Assembly: GCA_029263335.1 (NCBI GenBank)
Contig: JAJCXS010000147.1
Coordinates: 2,682-66,681, forward strand
Direction of reading: 5' to 3'
DNA from: Acidobacteriota bacterium
GTDB lineage: Bacteria > Acidobacteriota > UBA890 > WLXD01
DNA: 64,000 bases
The notes under the pieces were generated by a model. That model was given only the letters and a program-made list of their open reading frames with translations, did no database searches and had not been told where the DNA came from. Of this stretch, positions 36,683 to 53,199 are shown piece by piece. Position 1 is the first letter of the stretch. Each line of letters opens with the position of its first letter. The position numbers were made by a program, and so were the translations under genes.

Positions 36683-36704
36683 CGTTGCTCCTTCGATAGT
36701 GCGG

Positions 36705-38057
36705 TCAGATCCAGTAGCGCATGAGCAAGGCGGTTGCCGTTACAGCCCCACTCAACACGCCGTAAGCGGGCACGCCTGTTCGCAGTATCCGGTCCCGGGC
36801 CGCGGGTTCGAAAACTCTCGCGCCGATTGGCTGCAGCACGGATACTCCAACCATCGCGGCCAGCGGCACCAAGGGAATGAGATAACGGCCCACCAGCCCG
36901 ATCACCCAGGCGTTGCCTACCGGAGTGAAGGTCACGTACAGGGCACCGCCGATGATCGCCAGGGTGCCGGCACAAATCGCGGCGAGCCCCGCGATTTGTG
37001 CACCGCTCAGGCGATAGGCGCGCCGCGCCAATAGCGGAGACAGAGCCAATAGCACCAATGAAAGCACCTTGAAACTTGCGGGTAACCGCGTGTCGAGACT
37101 ACCAAGGTGGCCCACGACCTGGCTGAGGACCGACCCCCAGTACAGACTCAGCGTCTGCCAGGCGACCGACAGCCCCAGAAACGGGTTGGTGACGAGCTGC
37201 TCGAGTTGGACGCGCGGGTCCACTCCCGCGGGCAGGGGGAAGCCGGTGACTCCAGCTAGCCAAAAACTACTCATGGCGACTTGCACCACCGCGAACCCGC
37301 CCAACCATTTCCACCTTTGCTGCGGGTGACCCCAACGAGCAGCCGGAACTACGAGGATCGCCCATGGCAGTAGCCAATACCCCAGCTTCGTTAGAGAAAC
37401 TCCGATCGCGAGCAGGAAGTAGCCGGCGAGCTTCTTATTGTCGGCAACCTCCGAATTCTCGAGCTGCTGCGCTACCCAGGCGACCAGCAAGAAGCCGAGG
37501 CTGAGCGTTATCGCGTCGGCCGACAGACTGGCCATCTGAGTTACCACGGTGGGGAACAGAGCCAGTACGGCGAGTGTTGGTGCCAGCGAATCGCTCATGC
37601 GGAGCGAAACGCCGAGCAGCAGTGTGCCGATGAGCAGGTTGACCAGACGGCCCAGGTACATCAGCGCCAGCGGTCGCGGAGCGAACGGCTCGACAACCAC
37701 CATGGCGATCGCCGGGCCGAGATGGTTGATCGGCGGGTAGAGGGCGGCGGCGCCGAACGCGGCGAGGCTTTCGTCGTCGTCGATTCGCAGCTGCCACGCG
37801 TCGCTCAACAACTCGGGCGGATACTCGAGTTCGGGTCGGTGCCGGATTCCTCCGGTCGCCGTCTCGGCGAAGTCCACAATCGCCCGAGGCAGATAGTCCC
37901 TGCCCGAGCGGTCCGTGAAGCCACCGTGGCCAATCGAGTAGGCACGCAGGAAGTGCACAGGCTCGTCCGGCGGCTGCAACGGAGGGGTCAGGACCCCCGC
38001 ACTGATCCCGCACAGAAAGAAGATGCACTGGACTACGAGTCGCTCTCGGGCGTTCAT
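36705..38057 (-). CDS. Polytopic membrane protein, DUF2142-like (putative glycosyl/arabinosyl-transferase-like)
   Basis: About 11 predicted TM helices. N-terminal periplasmic loop with the PDExxHFxRAYxIxxG pattern typical of DUF2142. Adjacent to a GT2 gene. Confidence 0.5.
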   Translation of the reverse strand: MNARERLVVQCIFFLCGISAGVLTPPLQPPDEPVHFLRAYSIGHGGFTDRSGRDYLPRAIVDFAETATGGIRHRPELEYPPELLSDAWQLRIDDDESLAAFGAAALYPPINHLGPAIAMVVVEPFAPRPLALMYLGRLVNLLIGTLLLGVSLRMSDSLAPTLAVLALFPTVVTQMASLSADAITLSLGFLLVAWVAQQLENSEVADNKKLAGYFLLAIGVSLTKLGYWLLPWAILVVPAARWGHPQQRWKWLGGFAVVQVAMSSFWLAGVTGFPLPAGVDPRVQLEQLVTNPFLGLSVAWQTLSLYWGSVLSQVVGHLGSLDTRLPASFKVLSLVLLALSPLLARRAYRLSGAQIAGLAAICAGTLAIIGGALYVTFTPVGNAWVIGLVGRYLIPLVPLAAMVGVSVLQPIGARVFEPAARDRILRTGVPAYGVLSGAVTATALLMRYWI

Positions 38058-38774
38058 TCAGCGCCGCACTCCCGCTGCCAACAGAAAGAACGGTCGCATG
38101 ATCGACCACCAGTCCAATACCGGGCGGATCTTCGAGAGCCTACCTTTGCCGAGGTGACCGTACTCGATGGTCACGGATACTTCCACGATGCGCAGTTTCT
38201 GTCGGCAGACCCAGAAGTGGATGTAGTGCTCTAACTCGTACTGATTCAGCCACGATTGGTGCAGGTTGATCTGCGGCGACTCGAAGATGTCCAAGCGGTA
38301 AGCGCGGTACCCGCAGGTGATGTCGGTGTTGTCGTGAGCCGTGAGTCGGTTGGCGATCCATGTCGCGATGGGAATCGCGAAGCGGCGAAACCTCGGCAGG
38401 TCGCCGCCGGGGTCGGCTTTCAGGAAACGGCTGCCCTGCACGTAGTCCGCGTTGCCCTCGGTGATCGGTGCCGTGATGGCGGGCAGCTCTTCGGGGCGCA
38501 TCTTGCCGTTGGACGACATGATCACCACGAAGTCGTAGTCGTGTGCCACCGCGTGGTCGATCCCGGTGCGGATAGCGGCCCCGACGCCACGATTCGTTCC
38601 GTGTCGCAGTACGGCAACGCCCATTGCCTCTGCGAGCTCGGGTGACCCATCTGTCGAGCCGTCATCGACCAGGACGGCGTCGAGGCCACGTGCCGCGTGC
38701 GCGCGCAACCGCGTCAGGAACCGTTCGATCTCGAGAGCCTGGTCGTAATTGACGACAACAACGAGGCCCCGCAT
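38058..38774 (-). CDS. Family-2 glycosyltransferase (polyprenyl-phosphate sugar transferase-like)
   Basis: GT-A fold motifs: VVVVNYDQ, VLVDDGSTDGS, and the DxD-like DYDFVVIMSSNG. Confidence 0.8.
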   Translation of the reverse strand: MRGLVVVVNYDQALEIERFLTRLRAHAARGLDAVLVDDGSTDGSPELAEAMGVAVLRHGTNRGVGAAIRTGIDHAVAHDYDFVVIMSSNGKMRPEELPAITAPITEGNADYVQGSRFLKADPGGDLPRFRRFAIPIATWIANRLTAHDNTDITCGYRAYRLDIFESPQINLHQSWLNQYELEHYIHFWVCRQKLRIVEVSVTIEYGHLGKGRLSKIRPVLDWWSIMRPFFLLAAGVRR

Positions 38775-39397
38775 CAGGTATTCGCGCCCGATGCGGAATC
38801 GCCGGGGTGGTTCTCAGTGATGACGGCGCGTGCCAGAGCAACGACCTCCGGCTCGAGCTTCTCGTGACAGCAGTCGCGCAGCAGCTCAGCCGGGCGCGTG
38901 CCCAGAGGCATCTGGGTCTCGCCACAGCTGCACAGCATCTTGTTGGCCTTAACACCCGATCCGAAGCCGACCGCCAGGTGAAATGGCGGCACCGAATGCG
39001 TGAGGACGGTTCCTGCGCCCACCATCGCGAAGGCCCCCACGGTGACGCCGCAGGTGATGATCGCGCCGGCGCCGATGGCCGCGCCAGCGTGCACGAAAGT
39101 TGAAACGGGTTGCCACGAGCGGGTGCCCGCACGCGGGTAGCGATCGTTGGTGAACACAACGGCCGGGCCGATGAACGCCCAGGGCCCAATCTCCACACCC
39201 GCGTACACATTGACGCTGTTCTGGATACGACTGCCCTCACGAATCGTCACGCCAGGGTCGACGTACACATCGCGCCCGAGAGACACGCGATCACAGACTT
39301 TCGCCGTGGCGCGTACGTGGCAGTGATGCCAGATGGTGACGTCGCGTCCGATCTCCGCACCGTCTTCGATAATCGCGGTCGGGTGGATTCGTGTCAT
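38774..39397 (-). CDS. Left-handed beta-helix (hexapeptide-repeat) sugar N-acetyl/acyltransferase
   Basis: Consecutive hexapeptide repeats (IHPTAIIEDGAEIGRDVTIWHHCHVRATAKVCDRVSLGRDVYV…GAAIGAGAIITCGVTVGAFAMVGAGTVL). Start taken at the Met of MTRIHPTAII. The track ORF extends to 39517. Confidence 0.75.
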   Translation of the reverse strand: MTRIHPTAIIEDGAEIGRDVTIWHHCHVRATAKVCDRVSLGRDVYVDPGVTIREGSRIQNSVNVYAGVEIGPWAFIGPAVVFTNDRYPRAGTRSWQPVSTFVHAGAAIGAGAIITCGVTVGAFAMVGAGTVLTHSVPPFHLAVGFGSGVKANKMLCSCGETQMPLGTRPAELLRDCCHEKLEPEVVALARAVITENHPGDSASGANT

Positions 39398-39561
39398 CGG
39401 CACTCCGGGCGCGGAGGACAGATTTCGCAGCGTATCAGGCTCGCGGCCCGCGGGGGGGGGAGCTGCCTCGATAACGGTCGGCGTTATGCCAGCGGCGGCG
39501 CAAGACACTACGATCAAGAGACTACGATGAGGAATCGAGGGCCGCTGGCGAAACTGGAGAG

Positions 39562-40017
39562 GTGTCGCGCATGAGCGATCAACACGACAGCAAGAACGAC
39601 TTGTCGCATTTGACCGAAACGCAGCGCCGAGTCACTCAGGATAGCGGCACCGAACCGCCTTTCGACAACGAGTTCTGGGACAACCATGAACCGGGGATCT
39701 ATGTCGACATCGTGAGCGGGGAGCCGCTGTTCGCGTCGACGCACAAGTACGATTCCGGCTGTGGCTGGCCGAGCTTCACCGCCGCGCTGACCGCGGACCA
39801 TGTCAACGAGCTTACGGATGATAGTCACGGCATGGTGCGCACCGAGGTGCGTTCGACGACGGCCGACTCGCACCTCGGTCACGTGTTCGAAGATGGGCCC
39901 GGGCCGACGGGGCTACGCTACTGCATTAACTCGGCCGCTCTCCGGTTCGTTCCGCTGGATGATCTCGAGAGCGAGGGCTTCGGCGAGTACCTGCACCTCT
40001 TCAAGTCAAAGAGCTAG
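39562..40017 (+). CDS. msrB: Peptide-methionine (R)-S-oxide reductase MsrB
   Basis: MsrB signature GCGWPSF, catalytic RYCINSAAL, and HLGHVF. Confidence 0.9.
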
Positions 40018-42953
40018 CCGCTGTTCTTGAGCGCCTCGTGTGGCGCGATGCGAAGCGCGCGCAGCGTCGGCGCGAGGCATGCGGGAATCCCGACCAGCAC
40101 TACGACGCCAATGGCCGTGAACAAGGTCAGTAGCACCGGGGACTGGGCGGCCGGGCCACCTTCGTCGGGTGCTGAGTTCGCGAGAAGGAGGGCCAGGGGC
40201 AGGCCCAGCGCGATTCCGACCGCGAACTGGCCCATCGCGCGTTTCGCCACGGTGAAGGCGATGTCGCGTCGCTGCGCCCCGATCGCCGAGCGGAGTGCGA
40301 GTTCCGCGCTCCGCTCGGTTACCGAGAATGACAGGATTGCGTAGACACCCGAGGCCGCGAGCACCAGCAGCACGGCCACGAGAACGCCGCTGCCGAGACT
40401 CACAGCCTGCATCACGTACCAGTCTCCCTCGACCACCTGATCGAGTGCCATCGGCGTGGCGATGACTGCCAGGGGGTCCACCTCGTGCAGGATCGCACGC
40501 AGTCGCGGCGCGAACGCAAGGGGATCGTCGCCCACGTGAATCGCCAGTCGTACCGGGTTGGCGTCTCCGGGCGCGAGCGGGTGATAGATGCCCTCGCCCG
40601 AGAACGGCCTTACGAGCGTCATGCCGAGATTGTCGACCAGGCCGACGACCTCGTGCCACGGACCGGGCTTGCCATCGGGGCCCTGCCGATGACGAAGGCG
40701 TCGCCCGATGGGGTTGATTCCACCCAGTACGTTTTCCACGAACGGCGTGTTGACGATTACGACGTGGCTGTTGTCGCCAAGATCGCCGGCCTGGAAGCCG
40801 CGACCCGCCAGGACGGGCTGCTCCAGCGCTTCGAAGAAACCGATGTCGACGTTCGCTGAGCGGACTCTGTACGCCACCGGTTCTCCCTCGGTAGCGTCGC
40901 CTTCGATCTCGATCCAGCGGGCGGCGTGGTCCATGCGCGGTAGCGCCGTGGCGACGCCGACGCCGCGAATGCCGCCCTCGGCGTTCAGACGATCAACCAG
41001 GGCGATCTGGGTAGCGCCCATGCGGGCCGCCAGGGCACCGGAGTCGGATGACCCTGCTCCCGTGGCCGCCTCGATTCCAGGGATCGCAAGCTGCGCCGAC
41101 AGATACTGGTCGACCGGAATTCCGGCGACGTCGTCGGTGCCCGCGATGTTCTTCACCACGTCGGCCATGGTGAGGGCGAAGCCCACGATCGCCACCGCCA
41201 GCGCCACGTCGGCAACGATCAGGACACCGGAAACGCCACCATATCGGGTGCCGGTTCGTTGCGAGCGAGAGCGTTCGATGTTCGCGCGAATGCCCTGCCC
41301 GGTGAGCTTGAGGGCGGGCACAACGCCGACCCCAGCGGCGCTGAAGACGGCCAAGGCAAACGCCCACGACGCCGTCCACGGCGTGACGCTCAGGTCCACC
41401 CAGTAGGGAAGCTGCCCGTCCGCGAGTCGATGCATGAGGGGGCTCAGAGCCTGGTCGATCAGTAGCAGGCCAAACCCGGCGGCCAGAACAGCAAGTACCA
41501 GCGACTCAACGAACATCTGCCCGACGATGCGACTCCGCGCTGCGCCCAAAGCGGTTCGTATCGCCAGCTCGGTGGCGCGGTTCGAGTTGCGCGCGAACAT
41601 GAGCATGCCGACGTTCGCGCACGCAACGCTGAGAAGAACCAGGGTCAGGAGCTGGGCAACGTAGAAGTCGGGCTGACCGCGCATGCCGCTCTTCGCCAAA
41701 CCGAAGGCCAGCAACGCGAAGGGCGTCACCTCGGCGCGGAGCCGCGCGTGCGCCTCCGGAAACTGCGTTGCCATGGGTCCGTCGATGGCCAGCAGCTCCG
41801 CCTCGGCAGTGGTCGCATCCGTACCCGCGGCCAGGCGCCCGAAGATGTTGAGCGCGCGGCCGTGCCGGGGCTCTTGCGCCGGGTTCTCCCGCAGCGGTAG
41901 CCATAGCTGATGTTGCACGGGAAACCGGAAGCTGTCCGGCATGACGCCGACGATGCGATGCGCGCGATCACCGATCTGCAGTGTCCGCTGTAAGACGTCA
42001 GGGTCTCCTGCGAGTCGCGACTGCCAGAAGGTGTGGCCGATGACGACTACCGCAGGTGCATCGACGTCTTCGTCGGCCGGTTGCAGGGTCCTGCCGAGCA
42101 GGGGACGCGTACGCAGGATCTCGAACGCCGACGCCGTGGCTTCAGCGCCCGACGACGGGGCTACACGCTCGCCTTCCACCAGCACGTTGAAGGCTCCCGT
42201 CCGGAACGCGCCGAGCGTTTGGAACGAGGTCATCGCGCCGCGCCAACGGTCGTAGTCGTACATCGTCGTGCGATCGGTGCCGCTGGTCGCGGTATTCCAG
42301 TACCGAAGCAGCCGAATCTGGTCGCCGTCCTCGACAGGGAGCGGAGCCTCGAGGGCGTTGAACACGTGGAATGGGGCCAGCCCGGTCGGAATTCCGAGCG
42401 TGAGCGTTGCCGCCGCGACCAGCGAGAGTGACGGGTGTTTTACCAGCATCCGCACACCCGTCTTGACGTCCAAACGAGATATCGGCAGGTAGACCCGGAG
42501 TCCGCGTGCGCGCCACATCGCCATCGCCGACCCGACGACGTTGGTCGCGTAGCGCCAGTGCGCCCGCCGCGTCGGTATGCCGCTATCGAGGTCGTGTTGC
42601 AGCGCGTCGTCCAGATCGCGCAGCACGAAGGGAGCCTCGTGGCCTCGGATGCTGAGCATCGCCAGACGGCGCAGCACGGCCCGCACGGAGAAGCGTGGCG
42701 CCGTCATCGTTCTTGCGCCAGCTTGTCGAGCTGGGCGAGCAGTCCGCCCGCCATCGCCTGGATGGTCGAGTAGGTTTCCTGCAGCGCGCGCGCGCCAGTC
42801 GGCTCCAGCCGATAGTACTTGCGTGGCCGTCCCACCTGGCCGGCCGTTGTTGCGCCGACGCGGGCATTCACCATGCCGCGGTCCGCGAGTCTCCCGAGAG
42901 CCGTGTAGATCGCCCCGGAAGATGCCGTGCGCCCCGTGCGCTCCTCGATACAC
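40014..42953 (-). CDS. ADOP-family FtsX-like duplicated ABC permease with prefix domain
   Basis: 979-aa track ORF. It has a prefix-like N-terminus and two FtsX modules. The start is uncertain. MTAPRFSV, about 85 codons in, is plausible. Confidence 0.8.
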
Positions 42954-43048
42954 TGCCGGATCGCACCGCCGTACGCGTTGTCACCGAGCTCCACGACGGC
43001 GAAGAGAATCAACTGTTCGAACTCACCTAGATAGCTCAATGCCGGCAT
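42704..43048 (-). CDS. PadR-family transcriptional regulator
   Basis: [54 protein letters not shown]. Overlaps the start region of the downstream permease. Confidence 0.85.
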   Translation of the reverse strand: MPALSYLGEFEQLILFAVVELGDNAYGGAIRQCIEERTGRTASSGAIYTALGRLADRGMVNARVGATTAGQVGRPRKYYRLEPTGARALQETYSTIQAMAGGLLAQLDKLAQER

Positions 43049-43086
43049 CCTGAATCGGGGAACGCGGTGCGTTGTCCGTCGCGCTC

Positions 43087-43120
43087 AGTAGATTTTACTA
43101 CGGTGTAGTTAAAGTAATAC
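43087..43120. promoter_or_regulatory. Candidate PadR operator: two copies of the palindrome ACTACnnnGTAGT in an AT-rich patch upstream of the PadR gene
   Basis: ACTACGGTGTAGT (43087-43099) and ACTACACTGTAG (43109-43120), separated by TAAAGTAAT. These are the only AT-rich palindromes in the padR 5' region. Confidence 0.35.
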
Positions 43121-43267
43121 TACACTGTAGCTAAATGCGCCAGCGACGATCCATCGGAAGCCCATTGGGCGAGTAGACACCAGGCGGGACGGTGTTCGAC
43201 GACGTGAACGCGTCGAGCCTCACCGGATGGATCCCGCACCGACCCTGACGCGGGCTACTATGGCGGC

Positions 43268-43453
43268 ATGATGAAACGTGGAACCGGCACCGGCATGGGC
43301 ATCGCACTCGGAGTGGCGCTTGGAGCGGCGTTCGGCGACGTGGGCCTCGGTCTTGCTCTCGGCCTCGCCATCGGCGCGGCCTTGGATGGCGCGAATCATG
43401 TCGCTGCCGGCAAGACCGACGGCGGCGAAGCAGACAACGACGGCGCCCGCTGA
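43268..43453 (+). CDS. Small Gly-zipper membrane protein (hypothetical)
   Basis: 61 aa, GxxxG-rich (GIALGVALGAAFGDVGLGLALGLAIGAALDG). Short, so low confidence. Confidence 0.3.
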   Translation: MMKRGTGTGMGIALGVALGAAFGDVGLGLALGLAIGAALDGANHVAAGKTDGGEADNDGAR

Positions 43454-43534
43454 CGCACCGACCGTTCGCTACACGCACGAAACCCCCGCAAGCAGCCGTT
43501 CCTGAGCTGCCAGCGAGGGTTCGATCTCCCGCGA

Positions 43535-43552
43535 ACGGGAAGGTAGCCCTAA
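43535..43552. repeat. attL-like direct repeat: copy of the tRNA-Glu 3' end
   Basis: GGAAGGTAGCCCTAA (with flanking CGG) at 43538-43552 is repeated at 52472-52486. The right-hand copy is the 3' end of the tRNA-Glu gene. Confidence 0.5.
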
Positions 43553-43916
43553 TGTCTCCGAGTTGGAACAACCTGGCGGCATGGCTCCTAGCGGTCGAGG
43601 AACTCCAGCCGGCGGCATCTGCATGCTGAGAGAGCCCCGAAGTCAGTCGGATGCCTTTCCCTACATGTTCCCTACCGGGATATGAACCATGTATGGCAAG
43701 CAAGTGCGGGAGCCCCTGCAAGAGCCGCGTAACCGCTGTGTAGCCACTAAGTGCGGCAGTCCTCTGCCAGACCGCTCGAATGAGCGGGATAGCGAGCGCC
43801 TGCTGCGCGGTGAGACCATCGCCGGTGATGAATTCATGGCCAACTAGGTGGCGGAGAGCTTCAGCGGCGGTCGCCCCCGGCGAAGCCCAGAGCGATTCGT
43901 CAGCTGTTGGCTCATG

Positions 43917-44660
43917 TTATGCGGACTCGCTCGGCGCGCCTCCGAAGAGATGCTCGATCAAGCCCGCAGCGAACGGGAGCGCTCGTAGGAGTTGGTGAGT
44001 GTCCACTAGCTTCTTCGCGTGCGCGTGAAGGGCAGGCTCATCGCCAACAGGTATGTTCCGCACAGTGGATTCCCCGGTGCGTGTGTCGATGACGCGCACC
44101 TTGCCGGCAGTGGTCTGAGCCGTGATCTTCTTGATGTTGTAGTGGCTGTACGGATTGCGCACCTCATCCTTGAACCGCAGGAGTTCCTCGCGGAGGTGCT
44201 CCGAGATGATCCCGGCCTTGCGAGCACGAAGCACGGCAGGGTGGAACGTCATGCTCTCAAACTCGTCCCATTTCTCGGCGTCGTAAGCCCACTTTCCGAG
44301 TTCGGCCTTGTAGGTAGCCTGTTTCAATGCGAATTCAACGAGGATACCGAGCAGAGTCACCGCGGCGCCGTGCAAGCCGAAAATCGCACACTCGATGATC
44401 TCGTTCCAAAGAAAGCCCAGGTTTGGCTGGATGTGTTGAGGGATCTCAGGGAGATGCGGGATCAACACGGAGGCCGCCCTCCGACGGGTCTTGAATAGCC
44501 GGTCGAGGGTCTCTTCGGGCGGCAGCTCGGTCGGAGGATCGAACTCGACACCGGCATCCTTCAGATCGTCCAGCGCGCCGGGGCCAGCAACGATTACATC
44601 AGACCCCTTGGCCATCTTCTCGATCACGTCGGCTAGATTCGGCGGCTCCTTGTCCGTCAT
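43917..44660 (-). CDS. Hypothetical protein (island cargo, third gene of the minus-strand cassette)
   Basis: 247-aa ORF with no recognisable motifs. Lower GC than its surroundings. Confidence 0.5.
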   Translation of the reverse strand: MTDKEPPNLADVIEKMAKGSDVIVAGPGALDDLKDAGVEFDPPTELPPEETLDRLFKTRRRAASVLIPHLPEIPQHIQPNLGFLWNEIIECAIFGLHGAAVTLLGILVEFALKQATYKAELGKWAYDAEKWDEFESMTFHPAVLRARKAGIISEHLREELLRFKDEVRNPYSHYNIKKITAQTTAGKVRVIDTRTGESTVRNIPVGDEPALHAHAKKLVDTHQLLRALPFAAGLIEHLFGGAPSESA

Positions 44661-44870
44661 GCCCCCTCCTTTTCCGCATCATGGCTCAGAGCCTCAGCTG
44701 CAGCGCGGCGGCTCCCTCTAGTAGGAACTGCGAAGGCTCTGGATTTCCGAATTGTTCGGAGTGTTTAGCGCCGCCGGCTTCGGGCTCATGTTGTCCATCC
44801 GGCGCTGTTGCGATGAAGCCGCTACCGGAGACGAAGGATCGGACTCTCGAATGAGCCGGCCGCGCTGGTT

Positions 44871-46571
44871 TCAGAAGTTCAGTCCCAAGAGCCCCAGCAT
44901 CCATTCGAGGACCGAGCCATCAAGAGGTACCAAGCCGAGCGTCAGCACTACGAGGGCGACGGTCAGACCTACGAGGATCAGTGTGAGCCGCCCCACCTTC
45001 CCTTGCAGGTGCACATTCTCAATCGTGCCGCGGACCGTCCCGTGCTGCAGGAGGAGATCTCGCAACAGTCGCTCCAACTGCGTTAGGCGGACGCTTCGCC
45101 GGAACACGCTCGTACGCAGCGCTTCGGCGAGTGTCGTGTCCGCCGAATAGAGTTCCGACACCACCGGCTCGAATCGGCCAACCTCGGACTCGAAAGTTCC
45201 ATCGTCCGCAGCGATCTGCTCGAGGTCCGCAACAGTCGTCGCAACGTCCAAGCAAACCGACAAGTCTCCGTAGAGACCGGGCAGAGACCTGTGGGCCATC
45301 TCCTCGGCGCTACTCGGGAGACGAGCATCCCGAAGCACTTGGAGTCGCTCCTCGTACGTTGTAATCAGGGCGAGGGTCGCCCAGCGGCTGAGTAGGCCGG
45401 TCAGGTGCCCGTTCGTGGAGCTCGTGAGAGCGTGCTGAAGGTTGCCGCTGTAGTTCCGGAGATCCCCCTCGGACAAGTTGTCTTCGTGCAGCGTGGCCGC
45501 TGCGTGGAACCGCGAGCCCTCGTATCCCAGCAACGGCCAGGCGAACCGCAGGCCAGGATACGATTTGCTCGCCCAAGCATCCGAGTCAGCCTGCATGTTG
45601 AGCAACATGAGCCAGTCGGGGGTTGGACGTGCGTCGACGAACGGCTCGGTCCCAGTAAACGTCACGAGTTCGCACGTCGGCAGCGCGTCGCCGTCTGTTC
45701 CTTCCGTGAAGACACCGGGAAGATGCTCTCGGAACCAGTACGCGGCGCGCTTACGCCACTCATCGCGGTGTTTCCAGATCTCAGCGCTCTTCTGATTCCC
45801 CGAACTGAGTAGTCGGAGGTGTTTGGAGTCAGGAGGGGCCGCTTGGTGTCGCCGGTCCCGCCGCAGTATCTGCTCGTAGCGGCCGGTTGCCTGCTCGTTT
45901 AGGACGAACCCGACGACGATCGCAGTTACCGATGCGGAGAGGCCATACATCGTTGCCATCGCGTGATCCACGTCTCTGGGAAGTGGGACATTGCGCGTCC
46001 CCCACCACGACGTAGCCCCTGGTTCCCGGAGGGGCCCGAGGTTGTACCAGCCGCCACCAAACGGGGCCCCGCGTAGACTCTTGAGATGGGATGTGGGCGT
46101 GCTTCCGGCTATCCCGGGATCCTCGGTCGTCCAACCGAGATCTTCGAAGCTCTGAGCCAACCTCGCCGCATGCGGCGGCGCGTAGAGCTCCACGGCCCAG
46201 ACGCAACGCAGGTGGATGGAGTCATCCTCGCCCGGCGTGGTTCTGCGGTTGTCTTCTTCGTCAAACTCTCGAGTCTCACGCAGCAGCTCGCGCATATCCG
46301 GGTGCCGGACGAGGCGCGGCAGGTAGTGGTGGAGCGTCTCGTGGCATTGCCGCCGAGTCCGGGTAGCGATCGAAGCGAACCGTGTTCCGGCCTTCCGTGT
46401 CCCTCTCCATATCGTCTCCCAGAGGCGTGTGACCAGCGCAGCGGCCCGTGAGTAGGCGCGTCCAACTCCACTCCGAATCAACTTCCAAGTGCGTGTGGCT
46501 CGCGCAGCAAGCCACGCCTTGGCCTGTCGAACACCGCTCCACATCGAGTCCCGGATGCTACGCAGGCTCAT
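44871..46571 (-). CDS. Hypothetical protein with C-terminal transmembrane anchor (island cargo)
   Basis: 566-aa ORF. Single C-terminal TM helix (RLTLILVGLTVALVVLTLGLV). Otherwise no recognisable domain. Confidence 0.5.
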   Translation of the reverse strand: MSLRSIRDSMWSGVRQAKAWLAARATRTWKLIRSGVGRAYSRAAALVTRLWETIWRGTRKAGTRFASIATRTRRQCHETLHHYLPRLVRHPDMRELLRETREFDEEDNRRTTPGEDDSIHLRCVWAVELYAPPHAARLAQSFEDLGWTTEDPGIAGSTPTSHLKSLRGAPFGGGWYNLGPLREPGATSWWGTRNVPLPRDVDHAMATMYGLSASVTAIVVGFVLNEQATGRYEQILRRDRRHQAAPPDSKHLRLLSSGNQKSAEIWKHRDEWRKRAAYWFREHLPGVFTEGTDGDALPTCELVTFTGTEPFVDARPTPDWLMLLNMQADSDAWASKSYPGLRFAWPLLGYEGSRFHAAATLHEDNLSEGDLRNYSGNLQHALTSSTNGHLTGLLSRWATLALITTYEERLQVLRDARLPSSAEEMAHRSLPGLYGDLSVCLDVATTVADLEQIAADDGTFESEVGRFEPVVSELYSADTTLAEALRTSVFRRSVRLTQLERLLRDLLLQHGTVRGTIENVHLQGKVGRLTLILVGLTVALVVLTLGLVPLDGSVLEWMLGLLGLNF

Positions 46572-46694
46572 GGTTCCAGGAGTGACTGAGTGAGCCGGTC
46601 GGCGAGACTGCCGCGTGACAAGAGCGCCACGTGCCCTCCGAATGTTTGAGTGCTAGCAACCGCGCAGAGGATCTGCAACGTTTGTGGTCGGGCC

Positions 46695-49600
46695 TCATGC
46701 CCCTTGCTCGGTGCCAGATAGTGCCTCGAGGAACTGGCGCAGCGTGATGATGCGCTCCGTCGGGAATGGGAGCTCGGCAGCGAACTGGAAGGGAACGGGC
46801 CTGTTAGTGACTAGGTAGCCGGTCACCTCGACACTCCGAACATCCCGGTGAGGTAGATGGTTGACCCAGTCAGCATGAGCTTCCAGCCATTCCAGTCGTC
46901 GAACGTGTCGCCCGAGACGATCCGTCGCGTCGCCGGCGAAGTCCACCAGCCGATCTACAATACCGCTCAGGCCGTAGCTCGGCTGCAGCCGCTTGCACTC
47001 CACGGCCAGCACCGTGCTGCTCCCGGCTCGCCAAGCCAGGACGTCGATGTCGCCGAGTTCGTCCGGTGCCCCAAGCCGCGCCATAGGCACCTCCGTCTCG
47101 GTGGACCACCCCAACTGTCGCAGTGCATCGGACACCGAGATCGTGAACTCTCGTCCGCGTTCGTCGACTCGGCGCCCGACCAATCTGCCCATCTGCGGGC
47201 TCTCGAAGTACTCCGGACGCAGAGCGCCGGTCTCTATCCCATGGGTGATGTAGCTGAATGAAGACGCTAGTGAACTGACGCCGTACACGACGGTTGAATC
47301 AGCATCTCCCAATTGCACCAGTGGTCGCGAGACCACCGACAGCTTGCGGCCGTACTTCCATGGGTACCAGTCGCGGCTCGAGTATCCCTCGGGGGCTTGG
47401 TCCCAGCGGTTGCGGGGCCAGAGGGAGAGGCGGTCAAGTAGACGCCTAGCTCGCTCCTCGGGCAGGCCGCTGCTGATGGCGATCTGCGCGAACTCCTCGC
47501 TATGGGACTCGACTACCGCCTGCTCCGCATCGATCGCCTTGTCAATCAGTGAGGCCACGAACCCGCCTAGTTCCTGAGGCGTGGCTCCATACTCCGCTTC
47601 GAAGGCGGCGGTGGTTCCTGGCTCGTCCAGCCAGAGTGGTCCGCCTCCAGTTCCCCCCGTCACTTCGAAGTGGTGTTCGTACTCGTGATCGGTCTCGTGG
47701 AGGAGATGCTCCTGCGTCGATCTGGTGTAGTGAGTCGCCAGATCCCCGAGGGAGTCTCCGTCTATGTGCACCTCGCCGTTCGCGCAGATCACGGCTCGCT
47801 CGATCAATCCGCGGTGCGCGGCGTCTGCGTAACCCCCGAAGCGGCAAAGCGTTCGGCATCCCGCGAGCAGGTCGTCGTATTCGGATTGCTCAGGGGATGG
47901 ATGTCCGTCAAGGGGCGCCTCACAGACCGCGATCTCCGCGATGACTTTAGCCGCCTGCGATATGAGACCGCGTTCCGCCTCTTCACGGGCCGCAACGTCC
48001 GTCGCTTCGTTCCCGTAGAGTGCCCCGAGCGCTCTCGCGGTCCTTCGGAAGTGTGCTCTTTGCTGGGCGATTTCTTCCATCACGTGCAAGGAACGGGTCA
48101 CAAGTGCGTGGCGACCAAACTGCCCGATCTTGGTCCGCAATCGATCCGCGACGTCGGCGGCGCATACTTTCAGCACGTCGCGGCAGCGTTCACTGGTAGC
48201 CAACGTCTCTGCCGGCTGCCCGCCCGCCAGGGCCATTAGCCAGGGAGCATCATCAAGCCCGTGCAGACGTGACTTTGTGCCGGGCATGTGCGGCCGAAGC
48301 AGGTCGAGCGGGCTCGGCCTGTCGAAGAGGTGGATGTGCCGGATGTCCTGGTTGGGCATGAGGCTGTGCTCCAGTCTCCACCGCTCCGCCTCGCGCTCAT
48401 CGGCGCTAAGGTCTGGCGCTACCAGGCGCAGAATCGACTCTGCCAGCATCCGGAACAGTTCACGATCACCGTGGTTCGCAGGTTGGGTGAAGTAGTGGCG
48501 GTAGCCCGGGTAGATCCGTACGAGCACGGTGTTTTCGCGGCAAGTGGCCTCCATCGCGACATCACCGACATCTTCGTCGGGCTCTCCAGCGTCCTCCCAG
48601 GCTTCCGGCTCCTGAATATCGATGAGGAGCCGAGGCGCCGGCGTGCGCGGCCAGTTCGTGGCGAGGATCCTGACGATTGCTGCGGTCCACTTTAGAGCCG
48701 CCTCCCAGAGCAGGTACGCGACTTCGCTGGGGCCGTTGTTGCCCGCTTGTGCGCATACCCAAACGAGAGACTGGTCGGCCTCGATGACGCCGGCCAGGGT
48801 GCCGCTCCTCGCGGAATCCGCAGACGCGTATACGGGCTGGCCGGTAAGTGAATCGAACAGCGCATCCGCGTCCAAGCGAGATACCACTGTGGCCGGTTCG
48901 CCGGGTGTGTGGGGCGCGCCATGCTCATCGTGAAGGCTCTGCGTCCGGCAGCGTTGTTCGTGAAGTCGCATGCCCTCGACAAGAAACAGGCCGCGAACTG
49001 TGGGGAGGGGAAGGTCGCACGGGATCGGCCGTCCGTCATTGAGCATGAATTCCGCAACCACGGCCTCAAAACCGTAGGCGGTTTGTACGCGAAGTCCCGC
49101 AGCTTCTAGTCTTTCTAGGTGTCGCTGGAGCTTCCAGATCCACAGGAAAGTGCACTCTCGGACCAGCGCCATTAGGCTGAACTCGTAGAGGCCTAAGACG
49201 ATGACGTCTTCACCGGCCGCGGAGGCAAGCTCGGCTTCGATGTCGCCGCCACACCCGCAAAGTAAGAGGAGCGTGAGGGCGTCTTCCTCGGCCTCTCCAA
49301 GGATCTCCGCAAACCGACGCTGCTCGGTGTCGGTCCTCGTTATCCGAACATCTAGGTGTCGCCCGCCAGCGTCACCTGGCTCCGGGGTCAAATGAAGCAC
49401 CGTCGCCTGTTTCTGCTCATCGAACTGGACTCGGAGCCTACTCAGGCCCGGCACACCGGTAATGGACGGATCCTCTAGAAGAGTCGTGGCACCTCCGAAT
49501 CGAGGCATACAGTCACTAGCGACCTTCCGGTGCGCGGACGCCATCGCCTGGCAAAGCTCCCCGCCCCGGTTCACCCGCTCGAAAGAACGATAGATGTGTC

Positions 49601-50336
49601 GGCGAATCGCTGGTCCGAGGTAGCTCGGGACAGGGAGAACAAAGCTGGATCGCACACGGACTAACGGTCGCGTTAATAGCGGCGAGTCGGACAGGCGTGC
49701 GTCGGAGAGGTGCTGGCGTTCATCGACGTCCACGCAGAAATGGACGAGACTAGACGCGTCGATCCCAAGGTGCTCCAGTTCTGCGGCTTCGAAAGTAACG
49801 CGGTCAGCCAGGTCGTCCAGATCGACCGTCTCGATAACAGCCTCGATAGAACTGGGCTCGTCTGCCGTGGCCCATCTCTCGACTCCGGAGCGCGCCGCGA
49901 CGGCCCGAGTTAGACGAAGCAGAGCGTCCAGCCCGGATTGGCAATCGACCGGAGAGTTAGGTGGGAGCGTCAAGGTAGCGTTGATGAACAGCTGTGTGTA
50001 GAACGCGTTGCCTGTATTGATGCCCTGGAGCAGCAAGTACGTGTCGTCGGCGGCCACAGGCGCGGCGAACACGTCTTCCGGGGGGTCCTCCATGCGGGCG
50101 ACTGGGCAAGACCCCAGACCGTCTGCGCCGAGGAACTGGACCAGGTCCTGCGCGTTTGCTAGTTGACCTCCAGCCGAGACGGCAGCGGCGACGTGGCTGG
50201 CGCACTCCAGCCGAAGTTGGTTCGTCTGCAGTTCGGGAAGTGTTTGGAGACCGCCGATCACGGCGACGGTTCGTTCACTAAACGGGCGCAGCGAGCTTCG
50301 AAGGGTGCCGCCGGTGAATTGACTCACGCTCGGCAT
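46695..50336 (-). CDS. Large hypothetical protein (1213 aa) with C-terminal PD-(D/E)xK restriction-endonuclease-like motif (island cargo)
   Basis: C-terminal …APDELGDIDVLAWRAGSSTVLAVECKRL… fits PD-x(n)-D-x(n)-ExK. No Walker A/B motif found. The rest is unassigned. Confidence 0.55.
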   Translation of the reverse strand: MPSVSQFTGGTLRSSLRPFSERTVAVIGGLQTLPELQTNQLRLECASHVAAAVSAGGQLANAQDLVQFLGADGLGSCPVARMEDPPEDVFAAPVAADDTYLLLQGINTGNAFYTQLFINATLTLPPNSPVDCQSGLDALLRLTRAVAARSGVERWATADEPSSIEAVIETVDLDDLADRVTFEAAELEHLGIDASSLVHFCVDVDERQHLSDARLSDSPLLTRPLVRVRSSFVLPVPSYLGPAIRRHIYRSFERVNRGGELCQAMASAHRKVASDCMPRFGGATTLLEDPSITGVPGLSRLRVQFDEQKQATVLHLTPEPGDAGGRHLDVRITRTDTEQRRFAEILGEAEEDALTLLLLCGCGGDIEAELASAAGEDVIVLGLYEFSLMALVRECTFLWIWKLQRHLERLEAAGLRVQTAYGFEAVVAEFMLNDGRPIPCDLPLPTVRGLFLVEGMRLHEQRCRTQSLHDEHGAPHTPGEPATVVSRLDADALFDSLTGQPVYASADSARSGTLAGVIEADQSLVWVCAQAGNNGPSEVAYLLWEAALKWTAAIVRILATNWPRTPAPRLLIDIQEPEAWEDAGEPDEDVGDVAMEATCRENTVLVRIYPGYRHYFTQPANHGDRELFRMLAESILRLVAPDLSADEREAERWRLEHSLMPNQDIRHIHLFDRPSPLDLLRPHMPGTKSRLHGLDDAPWLMALAGGQPAETLATSERCRDVLKVCAADVADRLRTKIGQFGRHALVTRSLHVMEEIAQQRAHFRRTARALGALYGNEATDVAAREEAERGLISQAAKVIAEIAVCEAPLDGHPSPEQSEYDDLLAGCRTLCRFGGYADAAHRGLIERAVICANGEVHIDGDSLGDLATHYTRSTQEHLLHETDHEYEHHFEVTGGTGGGPLWLDEPGTTAAFEAEYGATPQELGGFVASLIDKAIDAEQAVVESHSEEFAQIAISSGLPEERARRLLDRLSLWPRNRWDQAPEGYSSRDWYPWKYGRKLSVVSRPLVQLGDADSTVVYGVSSLASSFSYITHGIETGALRPEYFESPQMGRLVGRRVDERGREFTISVSDALRQLGWSTETEVPMARLGAPDELGDIDVLAWRAGSSTVLAVECKRLQPSYGLSGIVDRLVDFAGDATDRLGRHVRRLEWLEAHADWVNHLPHRDVRSVEVTGYLVTNRPVPFQFAAELPFPTERIITLRQFLEALSGTEQGA

Positions 50337-51116
50337 CGAAGAAATCCTCTGCTAATGGGAAGGCTCAGGCGCCTCAGTCGCAGACTTGTCTTGCCGATGA
50401 GCCCGCCGACTAGGCGCAGGAACAGAGCTGAGGTCTCGACCCGGCGCGCCGACTGGAATAGCTGGTCCCGGCTTGTCGAAATCAGTCGGAGATCCCGGGT
50501 GCGACCGCAGTGTCGTACCTCAGAGATAACCACTGTGGACAGCCTTTTGCGATGTTCTTCTGCCGTTGTCCAGGCGCGTGGTCACGGGCGAGGTAGCCGA
50601 TCGCCAGATTGTGACGGGATCGCGTTCTTCGCGGGGACGCGGGAGATGTGCGCTGCTTAGGTCGGCACACACCTGCGCGCCGCTTGGCGATCCCGGCGAT
50701 TCCTTGACCCGCAAAATGCTCGGAAGAAAAGCGGGCCGCGCCTTCCGCCAGCGCGGGCGTGCAGCGCGAGCTCTTCACGCCTGACGGCGACGACACAGCG
50801 AGTGCTCAGCGACGTGTGGGGCGCCGTGGAGCGTCCTCCGGGGGAGACGCTCGTCGCCGCTGCTTGCGGAATCCGTGTCCGGAGCTCCAGGAAGTGTCGG
50901 AGTCGGGTGGCATCAGAGCAGCGATCCAGTCGGTGATGGCTAGCGAGGCCCTATTCTGCCCATGCAAGCCGACAGATTCTGTCGCTATAGGCGCAGGGGA
51001 AGCAAGTTCGGTCTACTTCCCACGTTGGGGGCGAATACGATAGATTTCATTCTGACGTCGCCCGGCGCGGGTCAACCACCAAGACAACTTGTTTTCTCGA
51101 CGCCCCAAAGCGCTGC

Positions 51117-51365
51117 TTGCAGTCGCTGGAGGGCAGGGGAACCGGGTCCGACGGGCTCGGTCTTGGTGGGATGGTCTCAGTAGAAGAGTGCCGGGCACTT
51201 ATTAGAAGCTCTGGGCTGCAGGGACGCGAATTCTCGGACGATGAGATCCGAGAACTACGCGATCATCTCGCCGAGCTCACGCGCCTACTGCTGACCGCTG
51301 CCCCTCCGGCGGCGGTACGTGCGACGGACAAGACAACGACGTCTCCGGAGACTTGCGATGGCTAG
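51117..51365 (+). CDS. Small hypothetical protein immediately upstream of the recombinase (possible regulator/excision factor)
   Basis: 82-aa ORF ending 8 nt into the recombinase start. No motif assigned. Confidence 0.25.
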   Translation: MQSLEGRGTGSDGLGLGGMVSVEECRALIRSSGLQGREFSDDEIRELRDHLAELTRLLLTAAPPAAVRATDKTTTSPETCDG

Positions 51366-52515
51366 TCGAGCTGTCGGGTATGTGAGGGTCTCGACTCCAG
51401 AACAGGCGGAGGCCAACACAAGCCTGGCTCACCAAGAGCGGGAGATTCGGCGATTCGCAGATCGCTCCGACATTGAGCTTCTCGAGGTCTTCGTTGAACG
51501 CGGGGTCTCCGCTCGTTCTCTTAAACGCGTTGAACTGAACCGACTAAGGACCTTCTACGCCGATAGGTCCAACAACGTCGATAGCCTGATCATCTGGAAG
51601 TTCGACCGGCTGTGTCGGGACGTTCGAGGCCATGTCGTACTTCGTGCCGAACTCCACGCCGCTGCGATCCAGGTCATCTCGGTTACTGAACCGACGTCGG
51701 ACGATCCTGCGGGGGTTCTGATGGAGAACATTCTCGCCTCGTTCGCCCAGTTCGAGAACGACGTCAGAGCCGAGCGTACGCGGGCCGGCATGGGATCAAC
51801 GGCGAGGCGCGGACGTTGGCAGACTAGGGCTCCGTTCGGATACCGACGGGGCTCGGCTGACGGTCCCAGCCTTCTGTTGCATGAGACGGAAGCGCCAGTT
51901 GTGCGCGAAATATTCGAACGTTCCGCCGGGAACTGCAGTCGCGAGCAGCTGGTACGGGAATTTGAAGCCCGCGGCGTTGTGTCCAAGACAAACCGACCGT
52001 TATCGGGGAAGGCTTTGCATCGGATCCTCACGAACCCGGTCTACCTGGGCAAGGTCGTCTGGAAGGGGAACACGTATCCAGGCGATTTCGAGCCTATCGT
52101 CGGCTCGCCCCTGTTCCAACGGTTGCAGGGGCGCATCCGGCGCGGCGCCCGCGTTCCCTCGGGCTCCGACAAGCGACAACAGGAGCGCATCTCTGCCGAG
52201 CGTTCTCGGATCGAGAAGGTGGTCTACGAACTCGAGGCTGCTACGAGTCCCGCGTACATCAACTATCAGTGGCTGACCCAGATGCTCACCGAGCCTGCCG
52301 AGATCTGGGACCGACTAGACGGTCCAGCGCGGCGGACATTTCAGCGGCTTGTCTTCCCCTTCGGACTACCTGTCGCGGGTCGGGCAGTTGGAACAGGCGA
52401 ACCGGCGCCTATCTTCCTACTAGTGCGGGAGAAAACGAAAAGCCGAGACGTGCAAGACGCCTCGGCTTCCCGGAAGGTAGCCCTAACGGGATTTGAACCC
52501 GTGTCTCCGCCTTGA
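51358..52515 (+). CDS. Large serine recombinase (resolvase/invertase catalytic domain + recombinase domain)
   Basis: N-terminal catalytic motif AVGYVRVSTPEQ with Ser nucleophile, …IIWKFDRLCRD…, then a recombinase domain (…GRWQTRAPFGYRR…). The ORF runs into the tRNA gene on the opposite strand. Start chosen at MASRAVGYVRVS. Confidence 0.85.
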   Translation: MASRAVGYVRVSTPEQAEANTSLAHQEREIRRFADRSDIELLEVFVERGVSARSLKRVELNRLRTFYADRSNNVDSLIIWKFDRLCRDVRGHVVLRAELHAAAIQVISVTEPTSDDPAGVLMENILASFAQFENDVRAERTRAGMGSTARRGRWQTRAPFGYRRGSADGPSLLLHETEAPVVREIFERSAGNCSREQLVREFEARGVVSKTNRPLSGKALHRILTNPVYLGKVVWKGNTYPGDFEPIVGSPLFQRLQGRIRRGARVPSGSDKRQQERISAERSRIEKVVYELEAATSPAYINYQWLTQMLTEPAEIWDRLDGPARRTFQRLVFPFGLPVAGRAVGTGEPAPIFLLVREKTKSRDVQDASASRKVALTGFEPVSPP

Positions 52516-52552
52516 GAGGGCGGTGTCCTGGGCCAGGCTAGACGATAGGGCC
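52478..52552 (-). tRNA. tRNA-Glu (anticodon CUC)
   Basis: Hand-folded cloverleaf. Acceptor GGCCCUA/UAGGGCU (G1·U72), anticodon stem CCGCC/GGCGG with loop CUCUCAA (anticodon CUC), T-arm ACGGG-UUCAAAU-CCCGU, discriminator A. CC is encoded but not the terminal A. Confidence 0.7.
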
Positions 52553-52662: not shown

Positions 52663-53199
52663 TCAGGGACCTGGGCTGGTCGCGGCCATCTGTTCCCACA
52701 GGAAGCCCATCGGCATACCGTTGACGAGCTCGTTGGGACCCTTGGTCCTGATGTCGAGGCAGAGCTGCCCGCCTGGGGGTACGACGAGGTCTTCAGTAAC
52801 TTCGACCGTCCGCTCGATTCGGCCCGTGGCCTTGTCTACTTTCCACGCGGGTGGCCGAAACTTGAAGAGCGTCTTGCCTGCGGCGTTGGTACCTGTGAGG
52901 GATATCTGCAGTTTGCGCGGGAATCCCACTGCTCGCGCGCCATCGCGAGATGCAGGAGGCTCGTCGATGTCGAGCTCGAGCGAGTAGAGCGCCGCGTAGA
53001 GTTCGACCGGGCTGCTGCCGAACACGGTGCATTTGACTCGATTCCAACGTGAGCGTGGGTAGCAGCGCGTAGGATGCCCGTCATCGTCGTAGGGGCATTG
53101 AACGTTGAAGGCGAAGAACACGTAGTCGAAGGTGCAGGCGTTCGTGATCAGCATTAGCGCCACGACAGAAAGAATCAGGGTTCGCCGAAACATGTTCAC
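52663..53199 (-). CDS. Secreted hypothetical protein
   Basis: 178-aa ORF with N-terminal signal peptide (LILSVVALMLITNA) and several Cys. No known motif. Confidence 0.45.
   Translation of the reverse strand: MNMFRRTLILSVVALMLITNACTFDYVFFAFNVQCPYDDDGHPTRCYPRSRWNRVKCTVFGSSPVELYAALYSLELDIDEPPASRDGARAVGFPRKLQISLTGTNAAGKTLFKFRPPAWKVDKATGRIERTVEVTEDLVVPPGGQLCLDIRTKGPNELVNGMPMGFLWEQMAATSPGP

Follow-up and report, generated by a model that had tools for sequence, protein, structure and literature searches.

An 8.9-kb element in a tRNA-Glu gene of an Acidobacteriota bacterium, and a tRNA-targeting clade of serine recombinases whose genes appear to span attP

The 64-kb stretch of Acidobacteriota DNA analysed here (64,000 nt of contig JAJCXS010000147.1, assembly GCA_029263335.1; hereafter the window) contains a single tRNA gene, tRNA-Glu(CUC), with an 8,934-bp element inserted in its 3′ end. 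This gene is intact and lies on the minus strand, at 52476–52552 according to ARAGORN and at 52478–52552 according to Rfam. The 15-mer GGAAGGTAGCCCTAA has exactly two copies in the window, at 43538–43552 and 52472–52486, with one mismatch allowed, and gave no matches in 100 shuffles. The right copy consists of the last 11 nt of tRNA-Glu and 4 nt of flank. The left copy is what was originally the 3′ end of tRNA-Glu (11 nt), now displaced, with 4 nt of its original downstream flank, and forms a recombinant junction. The tRNA 3′ end at the right copy is rebuilt from element DNA, and a terminator-like hairpin directly after it (52436–52472, minus strand; 16 pairs followed by a T-run) is contributed by the element. 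An intact tRNA at one end and a direct repeat of its displaced 3′ end at the other, the hallmark of tRNA-integrated islands, are thus both present. Moreover, the GC content of the insert is 62.4%, compared with 65.2% in the remaining window; it is the lowest-GC 8.9-kb stretch of the 64 kb, and stretches that do not overlap it range from 64.3 to 66.2%. An earlier sequence-only reading had pointed to this tRNA-Glu gene, to the duplication of its 3′ end and to a visibly lower GC content between the repeats, and all three were borne out.

That reading had also described a large serine recombinase gene which abuts the tRNA and reads through its 3′ end. The open reading frame (ORF) at 51319–52515 on the plus strand matches Resolvase (PF00239, E 1.5e-31) and Recombinase (PF07508, E 4e-15, residues 189–275 of the 398-aa translation), and its stop codon does lie 39 nt inside tRNA-Glu. 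The likely start is the ATG at 51358, giving a 385-aa product (51358–52515) on record as P0001. The N-terminal resolvase domain with the catalytic serine, a hallmark of large serine recombinases, is thereby present, and alignment A1 shows no variation at Y8, R10, V11 and S12. The final 10 codons (TGFEPVSPP*) come from antisense reading of the host tRNA. A small ORF of 64 aa (51171–51365, plus strand; alignment A2) precedes the gene, and its stop overlaps the recombinase ATG. A hidden Markov model (HMM) search placed members of its family immediately before the recombinase gene in 68 of 90 related loci, and our guess is that it may encode an accessory or directionality factor. Further upstream, about 0.83 kb (50337–51170) is presumed to be a divergent regulatory region: there was no codon periodicity in a GC phase plot, no tblastx or blastn match to related loci, and no Rfam match. 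No matches to sigma-70-like promoters were found in the region.

Empty and filled forms of the site both exist. Logan metagenome contig L001 (run SRR15505513, 1,864 bp), found by exact look-up of the PadR protein encoded outside the left junction, is an empty site. It is 99.8% identical to window positions 41736–43552 and then runs unbroken into 52472–52533, the 15-nt core being present only once. It also contains an exact match to the 105-nt attB reconstructed from the two window junctions, and both core copies are placed by this contig as well as by the exact repeat, the left one being its junction point. The sister run SRR15505518 contains the filled site, with contig L010 spanning 35959–44031 across the left junction and contig L009 spanning 44461–49183 inside the element. 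Three SNPs are private to the empty haplotype, and other SNPs occur in the filled contig; hence, very close strains are polymorphic for the 8,934-bp insertion. No further contigs came from exact look-ups of the recombinase and of the Upx protein encoded in the element. The earlier suggestion of a site-specific insertion rather than ancestral sequence is upheld by the single core of L001, and neither close relatives with the same genes and no repeat nor a frequent chance occurrence of the repeat was found.

When the two halves of the recombinase locus are joined into a rebuilt attP, the window ORF is read through the core as ...RKVAL|MSPSWNNLAAWLLAVEELQPAASAC*. The orphaned 3′ end of the gene, encoding the tail MSPSWNNLAAWLLAVEELQPAASAC, lies in frame with the left core at 43552–43629 on the plus strand. 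Relatives without a tRNA carry this conserved tail (SWNxL...) uninterrupted: on two tRNA-less viral contigs the recombinase ends as ...LVDHPTPSWNSVRTWL...RAA* (L173) and ...LVDLLTPSWNPTLAWL...RAA* (L174), and an uninterrupted SWNxL tail was found in 7 genomic relatives without a tRNA. The rebuilt attP of L017, L083 and L003 also restores an SWNxL tail, and elements of the Patescibacteria type (L041 and L049) have a common tail different from SWNxL. In the tail alignment (A6), the W never varies and the N and V are nearly invariant. Because the rebuilt attP gives a tail that tRNA-less relatives carry without interruption, the native gene spans attP, so that the attachment site is located within the coding sequence of the integrase itself, as judged from both the rebuilt site and contiguous relatives.

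In accordance with this architecture, the attP of the element duplicates the final 11 nt of the tRNA and 4 nt of flank, with the element's own terminator coming next, and is situated in the recombinase gene some 25 codons ahead of the natural stop. With such a copy of the tRNA end and terminator, integration would rebuild an intact tRNA and leave the old 3′ end 8.9 kb away. It would also detach the conserved native tail and exchange the last ~25 recombinase residues for tRNA-antisense codons, as predicted from the sequences on both sides of the core. The tRNA-antisense ends that result read TGFEPVSPP* at tRNA-Glu and TGIEPVTS* at tRNA-Ala. Several native tails end with -RRAA (L017, rebuilt), -YRAA (L173 and L081) or -PRAA (L174), which resemble ssrA-type tags; the tail of the window ends with -AASAC.

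The same arrangement is widespread. Among relatives gathered from context look-ups and from a scan of one genome per species (alignment A4), 58 of the 83 complete ones have an opposite-strand, convergent tRNA at the 3′ end of the recombinase gene, and the overlap is fixed in nearly all. The targets are tRNA-Ala-GGC (26 loci, overlap of 37 nt in most), tRNA-Glu-UUC or -CUC (25 loci, 38–40 nt in most), tRNA-Lys-CUU (5 loci, 64 nt), tRNA-Arg-UCU (1 locus, 38 nt) and tRNA-Ala-CGC (1 locus, 49 nt). Hosts are mostly Acidobacteriota/Vicinamibacterales and Patescibacteria, together with Verrucomicrobia, Nitrospira and others, and a few of the relatives are on predicted viral contigs. Direct repeats of 13–20 nt across the tRNA 3′ end were found within 10 kb in 7 relatives (L003, L017, L024, L036, L041, L049 and L083), and the elements bounded by such repeats are 4–11 kb long. 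Their cargo varies, and includes FtsK and RepSA (L003), a rolling-circle Rep (L049), type I restriction-modification (L004) and an AraC-type regulator.

Several further features of these loci were observed. One type of host site (tRNA-Glu, tRNA-Gln, DUF218, GltX) holds related recombinases in L003 and L006 with entirely different cargo, FtsK and RepSA in the former, and a glycosidase and transposase-like genes in the latter. Two upstream copies of the tRNA-end core are present in each of L024 (3047–3064 and 5476–5495) and L036 (1207–1226 and 3600–3616), which suggests tandem or stacked elements at one tRNA. Direct repeats of at least 60 nt in L057 (2201–2262 and 11640–11701) and of 36 nt in L023 (1619–1654 and 11427–11462) are beside the tRNA end rather than across it, and are outside the pattern of 13–20-nt cores. 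In L024, L035 and L077, the recombinase ORF stops 316–372 nt short of the tRNA and looks frameshifted or decayed; post-integration decay may be common in these integrases.

Integration of serine recombinases into tRNA genes has been described as rare, with phiRSM1 (tRNA-Ser) and the AICEs of Mycobacterium (tRNA-Leu) as examples (Ghinet et al. 2011, PMC3218068); according to the Islander paper, serine integrases were not known to use tRNA genes. As in phiRSM1 and these AICEs, the recombinase here inserts into a tRNA 3′ end and the tRNA is regenerated. However, the targets are Glu, and Ala, Lys and Arg in relatives, attP is inside the recombinase gene, and the hosts belong chiefly to Acidobacteriota, Patescibacteria and other uncultured lineages. 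Phage serine integrases such as Bxb1, phiC31 and A118 share the resolvase and recombinase domains with the window protein, and also the zinc ribbon and coiled coil with its relatives. Classical serine integrases have shared cores of 2–8 bp and usually disrupt protein genes (PMC8092301), whereas the core of the present clade is 13–20 bp, because the tRNA must be rebuilt, and the window copy has no zinc ribbon.

Self-splitting integrases, which are tyrosine enzymes, have been described as found only in archaea (review PMC8371274). The present clade resembles these SSV-type 'suicidal' integrases in that the attachment site is within the integrase's own gene, which integration breaks. SSV-type enzymes are of the unrelated tyrosine family and their gene is split mid-way, whereas here only the last ~25 codons of a serine recombinase gene are swapped and the tRNA gives a new stop. 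The clade is a mild functional version of SSV-type self-splitting and, consisting of serine recombinases, not a member of that group. In the integration-dependent immunity of mycobacteriophages, as summarised in PMC8092301, attP is also within a coding sequence and integration alters a C-terminus; the altered protein there is a repressor, and the integrase is of the tyrosine type. The same summary describes ssrA-type degradation tags for mycobacteriophage integrases and repressors, which the -RAA ends of some native tails here resemble. A limited literature search turned up no description of a serine integrase whose gene spans its own attP, which is a weak negative.

Taken together, these relatives may form a large bacterial clade of serine integrases, apparently not yet described, which target tRNA-Ala, -Glu, -Lys and -Arg genes at their 3′ ends, whose own genes span attP, and in which each integration swaps a conserved tail of ~25 aa (SWNxL..., sometimes ending -RAA) for a tRNA-antisense peptide, a counterpart of the archaeal 'suicidal' integrases. 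The swap could switch recombination direction or protein stability, perhaps with the upstream small ORF. We put forward this full proposal tentatively, and regard it as rather doubtful. Another explanation, for which the case is finely balanced, is that the swap has no function: attP would overlap the 3′ end of the gene by compaction only, and the conserved tail would be dispensable. Only ~25 of roughly 510 residues are exchanged and tail sequences vary between subclades, in agreement with this explanation. However, within subclades the tail is conserved across distant hosts with W invariant, and the stop falls at a fixed position within the tRNA in dozens of independent elements, both of which argue against this explanation.

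The recombinase of the window itself differs from its family. Its nearest relatives share at most 45% identity with it over the first ~265 residues, are 480–560 aa long and contain a zinc ribbon. In BLASTP against P0002, residues 4–264 of the window protein align with 2–264, and residues 278–385 align with 399–499. Hence, about 121 aa have been lost in frame; the counterpart of P0002 residues 265–398, which contains the four-Cys ribbon and half of the coiled coil, is gone, and the C-terminal block is kept in frame. No match to PF13408 and no Cys after residue 260 were found in the window protein, and the ribbon and coiled coil are kept in all close relatives. The zinc-ribbon/coiled-coil region of serine integrases binds outer att motifs and mediates synapsis. 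Its loss therefore suggests an inactive copy: the recombinase is probably defective, judging from its domain content, and the element is probably now fixed in place. Accordingly, the description of this gene as a large serine recombinase stands for its catalytic and Recombinase domains, but not for the zinc-ribbon/coiled-coil region.

The element could nevertheless still be mobile, if the shortened recombinase works without the zinc ribbon or if a full-length relative elsewhere in the genome acts in trans. This agrees with the coexistence of empty and filled alleles among strains >99.8% identical, and with a deletion that is in frame and leaves the ORF ending at the canonical tRNA position. 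Retention of the lost region by every close relative, its part in att binding and synapsis, and the absence of a second recombinase from the 64-kb window make continuing mobility unlikely. That the region is ancestral, with the empty allele arising from a chance deletion between the 15-nt repeats rather than from site-specific recombination, is highly improbable even though short repeats can mediate deletion, since the repeat is exactly the tRNA 3′ end and adjoins a recombinase, the layout recurs in the 58 related loci with flanking repeats in 7, the GC content of the insert is deviant, and the rebuilt attP restores a conserved reading frame.

Some points weigh against an integrative element inserted by this recombinase. 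No recognisable replication or transfer gene is present among the element genes. Dyad symmetry in attB and attP, sought to place the crossover, reached at best 9–10 of 20 matches, with scattered centres and none shared, and the crossover dinucleotide could not be placed. In addition, L001 is a short contig (1.86 kb) assembled from short reads, and extends only 47 nt past the core on the tRNA side. With these points included, we put at close to nine in ten the probability that an 8,934-bp integrative element was inserted in the 3′ end of tRNA-Glu(CUC) by a large serine recombinase of the tRNA-targeting clade, with attP in its gene, a tail swap and defence-type cargo, and that it is now probably fixed. 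The sequences directly demonstrate the insertion with its borders, both alleles of the site, the association with tRNAs throughout the clade and the tail architecture; the catalytic event itself we infer.

The cargo of the element consists of three unlinked defence-type genes, encoding Upx, a HEPN-like protein and a CorA-like membrane protein, whose defence functions we infer. The space between the repeats had been described as holding only uncharacterised genes, which does not apply to the largest of them (46695–50336, minus strand). This gene encodes a 1213-aa Upx anti-phage protein with a C-terminal PD-(D/E)xK nuclease, as identified by PADLOC (Upx, E 8e-108), NCBIfam and PDB matches. Residues 21–1186 match NCBIfam Upx_antiphage with E 2e-128, at 429 bits, below the equivalog cut-off of 1900, and match 50–1251 of PDB 9wuf_A, nearly the full length, with E 4.5e-78. 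D1098, E1113 and K1115 align with the catalytic D1161, E1176 and K1178 of SeUpx (PMC13099982, PMC13601566), and DIDVLAW...VECK aligns column for column; the protein is thus predicted to be a full-length Upx with an intact D/E/K triad. Upx is a single-gene anti-phage system (Gao 2020, as cited in PMC13601566; PMC13099982) and senses phage terminase (PMC13601566). The window protein shares full-length homology and the D...ExK nuclease triad with characterised Upx, but is divergent from it, as its bit score indicates.

The HEPN-like protein (247 aa; 43917–44660, minus strand) belongs to an unannotated family of 56 clusters. The family motif RNPYxHYNIKKI, in which R168-N169-P170 is invariant and H173 nearly so among 25 sequences, contains the HEPN hallmark Rx4-6H (RNPYSH). 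The AF2 model is mostly helical (pLDDT 84), with a weak fold match to HEPN 1o3u (probability 0.54, TMt 0.60), and members of the family have weak profile matches to DUF4145 (6 of 25 members, best E 6e-4), HEPN pEK499_p136 and HepT-like_2. These matches are weak but mutually consistent, and make the protein a candidate HEPN-like RNase toxin or abortive-infection gene product. The CorA-like protein (566 aa, called as 474 aa by NCBI; 44871–46571, minus strand) has an alpha/beta head, long helices and a C-terminal transmembrane segment in its AF2 model (pLDDT 91). Its top 37 PDB fold matches are all CorA, followed by the related ZntB, with E ~1e-3 and probability up to 0.97, but low TM-scores of 0.2–0.34, and there was no Pfam CorA match. 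A word-indexed search returned no relatives of this protein and would have left it an orphan, whereas exhaustive HMMER gave 903 representatives. A single three-gene system of Upx, CorA-like and HEPN-like proteins was also considered and rejected: relatives of the 247-aa protein were encoded at 80 metagenome loci, none of which had a relative of Upx or of the 566-aa protein nearby, and no other neighbour was conserved. Hence, the three cargo genes are independent.

The genes flanking the element are ordinary host genes. To the left are PadR and a MacB/FtsX permease, in agreement with the PadR–permease unit that the sequence-only reading had placed outside the left repeat, and to the right are a LuxR-type response regulator and a propeller histidine kinase. 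An AT-rich patch with an inverted repeat (TACTACGGTGTAG ... CTACACTGTAG) at 43088–43137, ~40–90 nt upstream of where PadR begins, probably serves as its operator, in line with the operator patch of the sequence-only reading. A 61-aa Gly/Ala-rich small ORF (43268–43453, plus strand) with no Pfam match lies between the left junction and PadR; in L001 and L010 it is likewise predicted, as a gene of 52 aa. Just past the 5′ side of the tRNA, a 178-aa ORF with a lipoprotein-like signal (52663–53199, minus strand) has no Pfam match, and its exact protein was absent from the collection searched. Its GC content of 60.3% is as low as that of the element, so that the GC dip reaches ~53500; this ORF could be a remnant of an older insertion.

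The wider interest of this locus is in the clade-level pattern of tRNA targeting and in the tail swap. tRNA genes have been treated as a preserve of tyrosine integrases, and here a whole clade of serine recombinases uses them in several phyla, the tRNA being rebuilt by a long core. The element also shows Upx and two uncharacterised defence-type genes travelling as a minimal cassette. Serine integrases are in wide use for genome engineering, to which the clade would contribute enzymes whose landing sites, in tRNA genes, are conserved and predictable. If the tail swap does alter activity or stability, it would be a new control of the direction of serine integrases.

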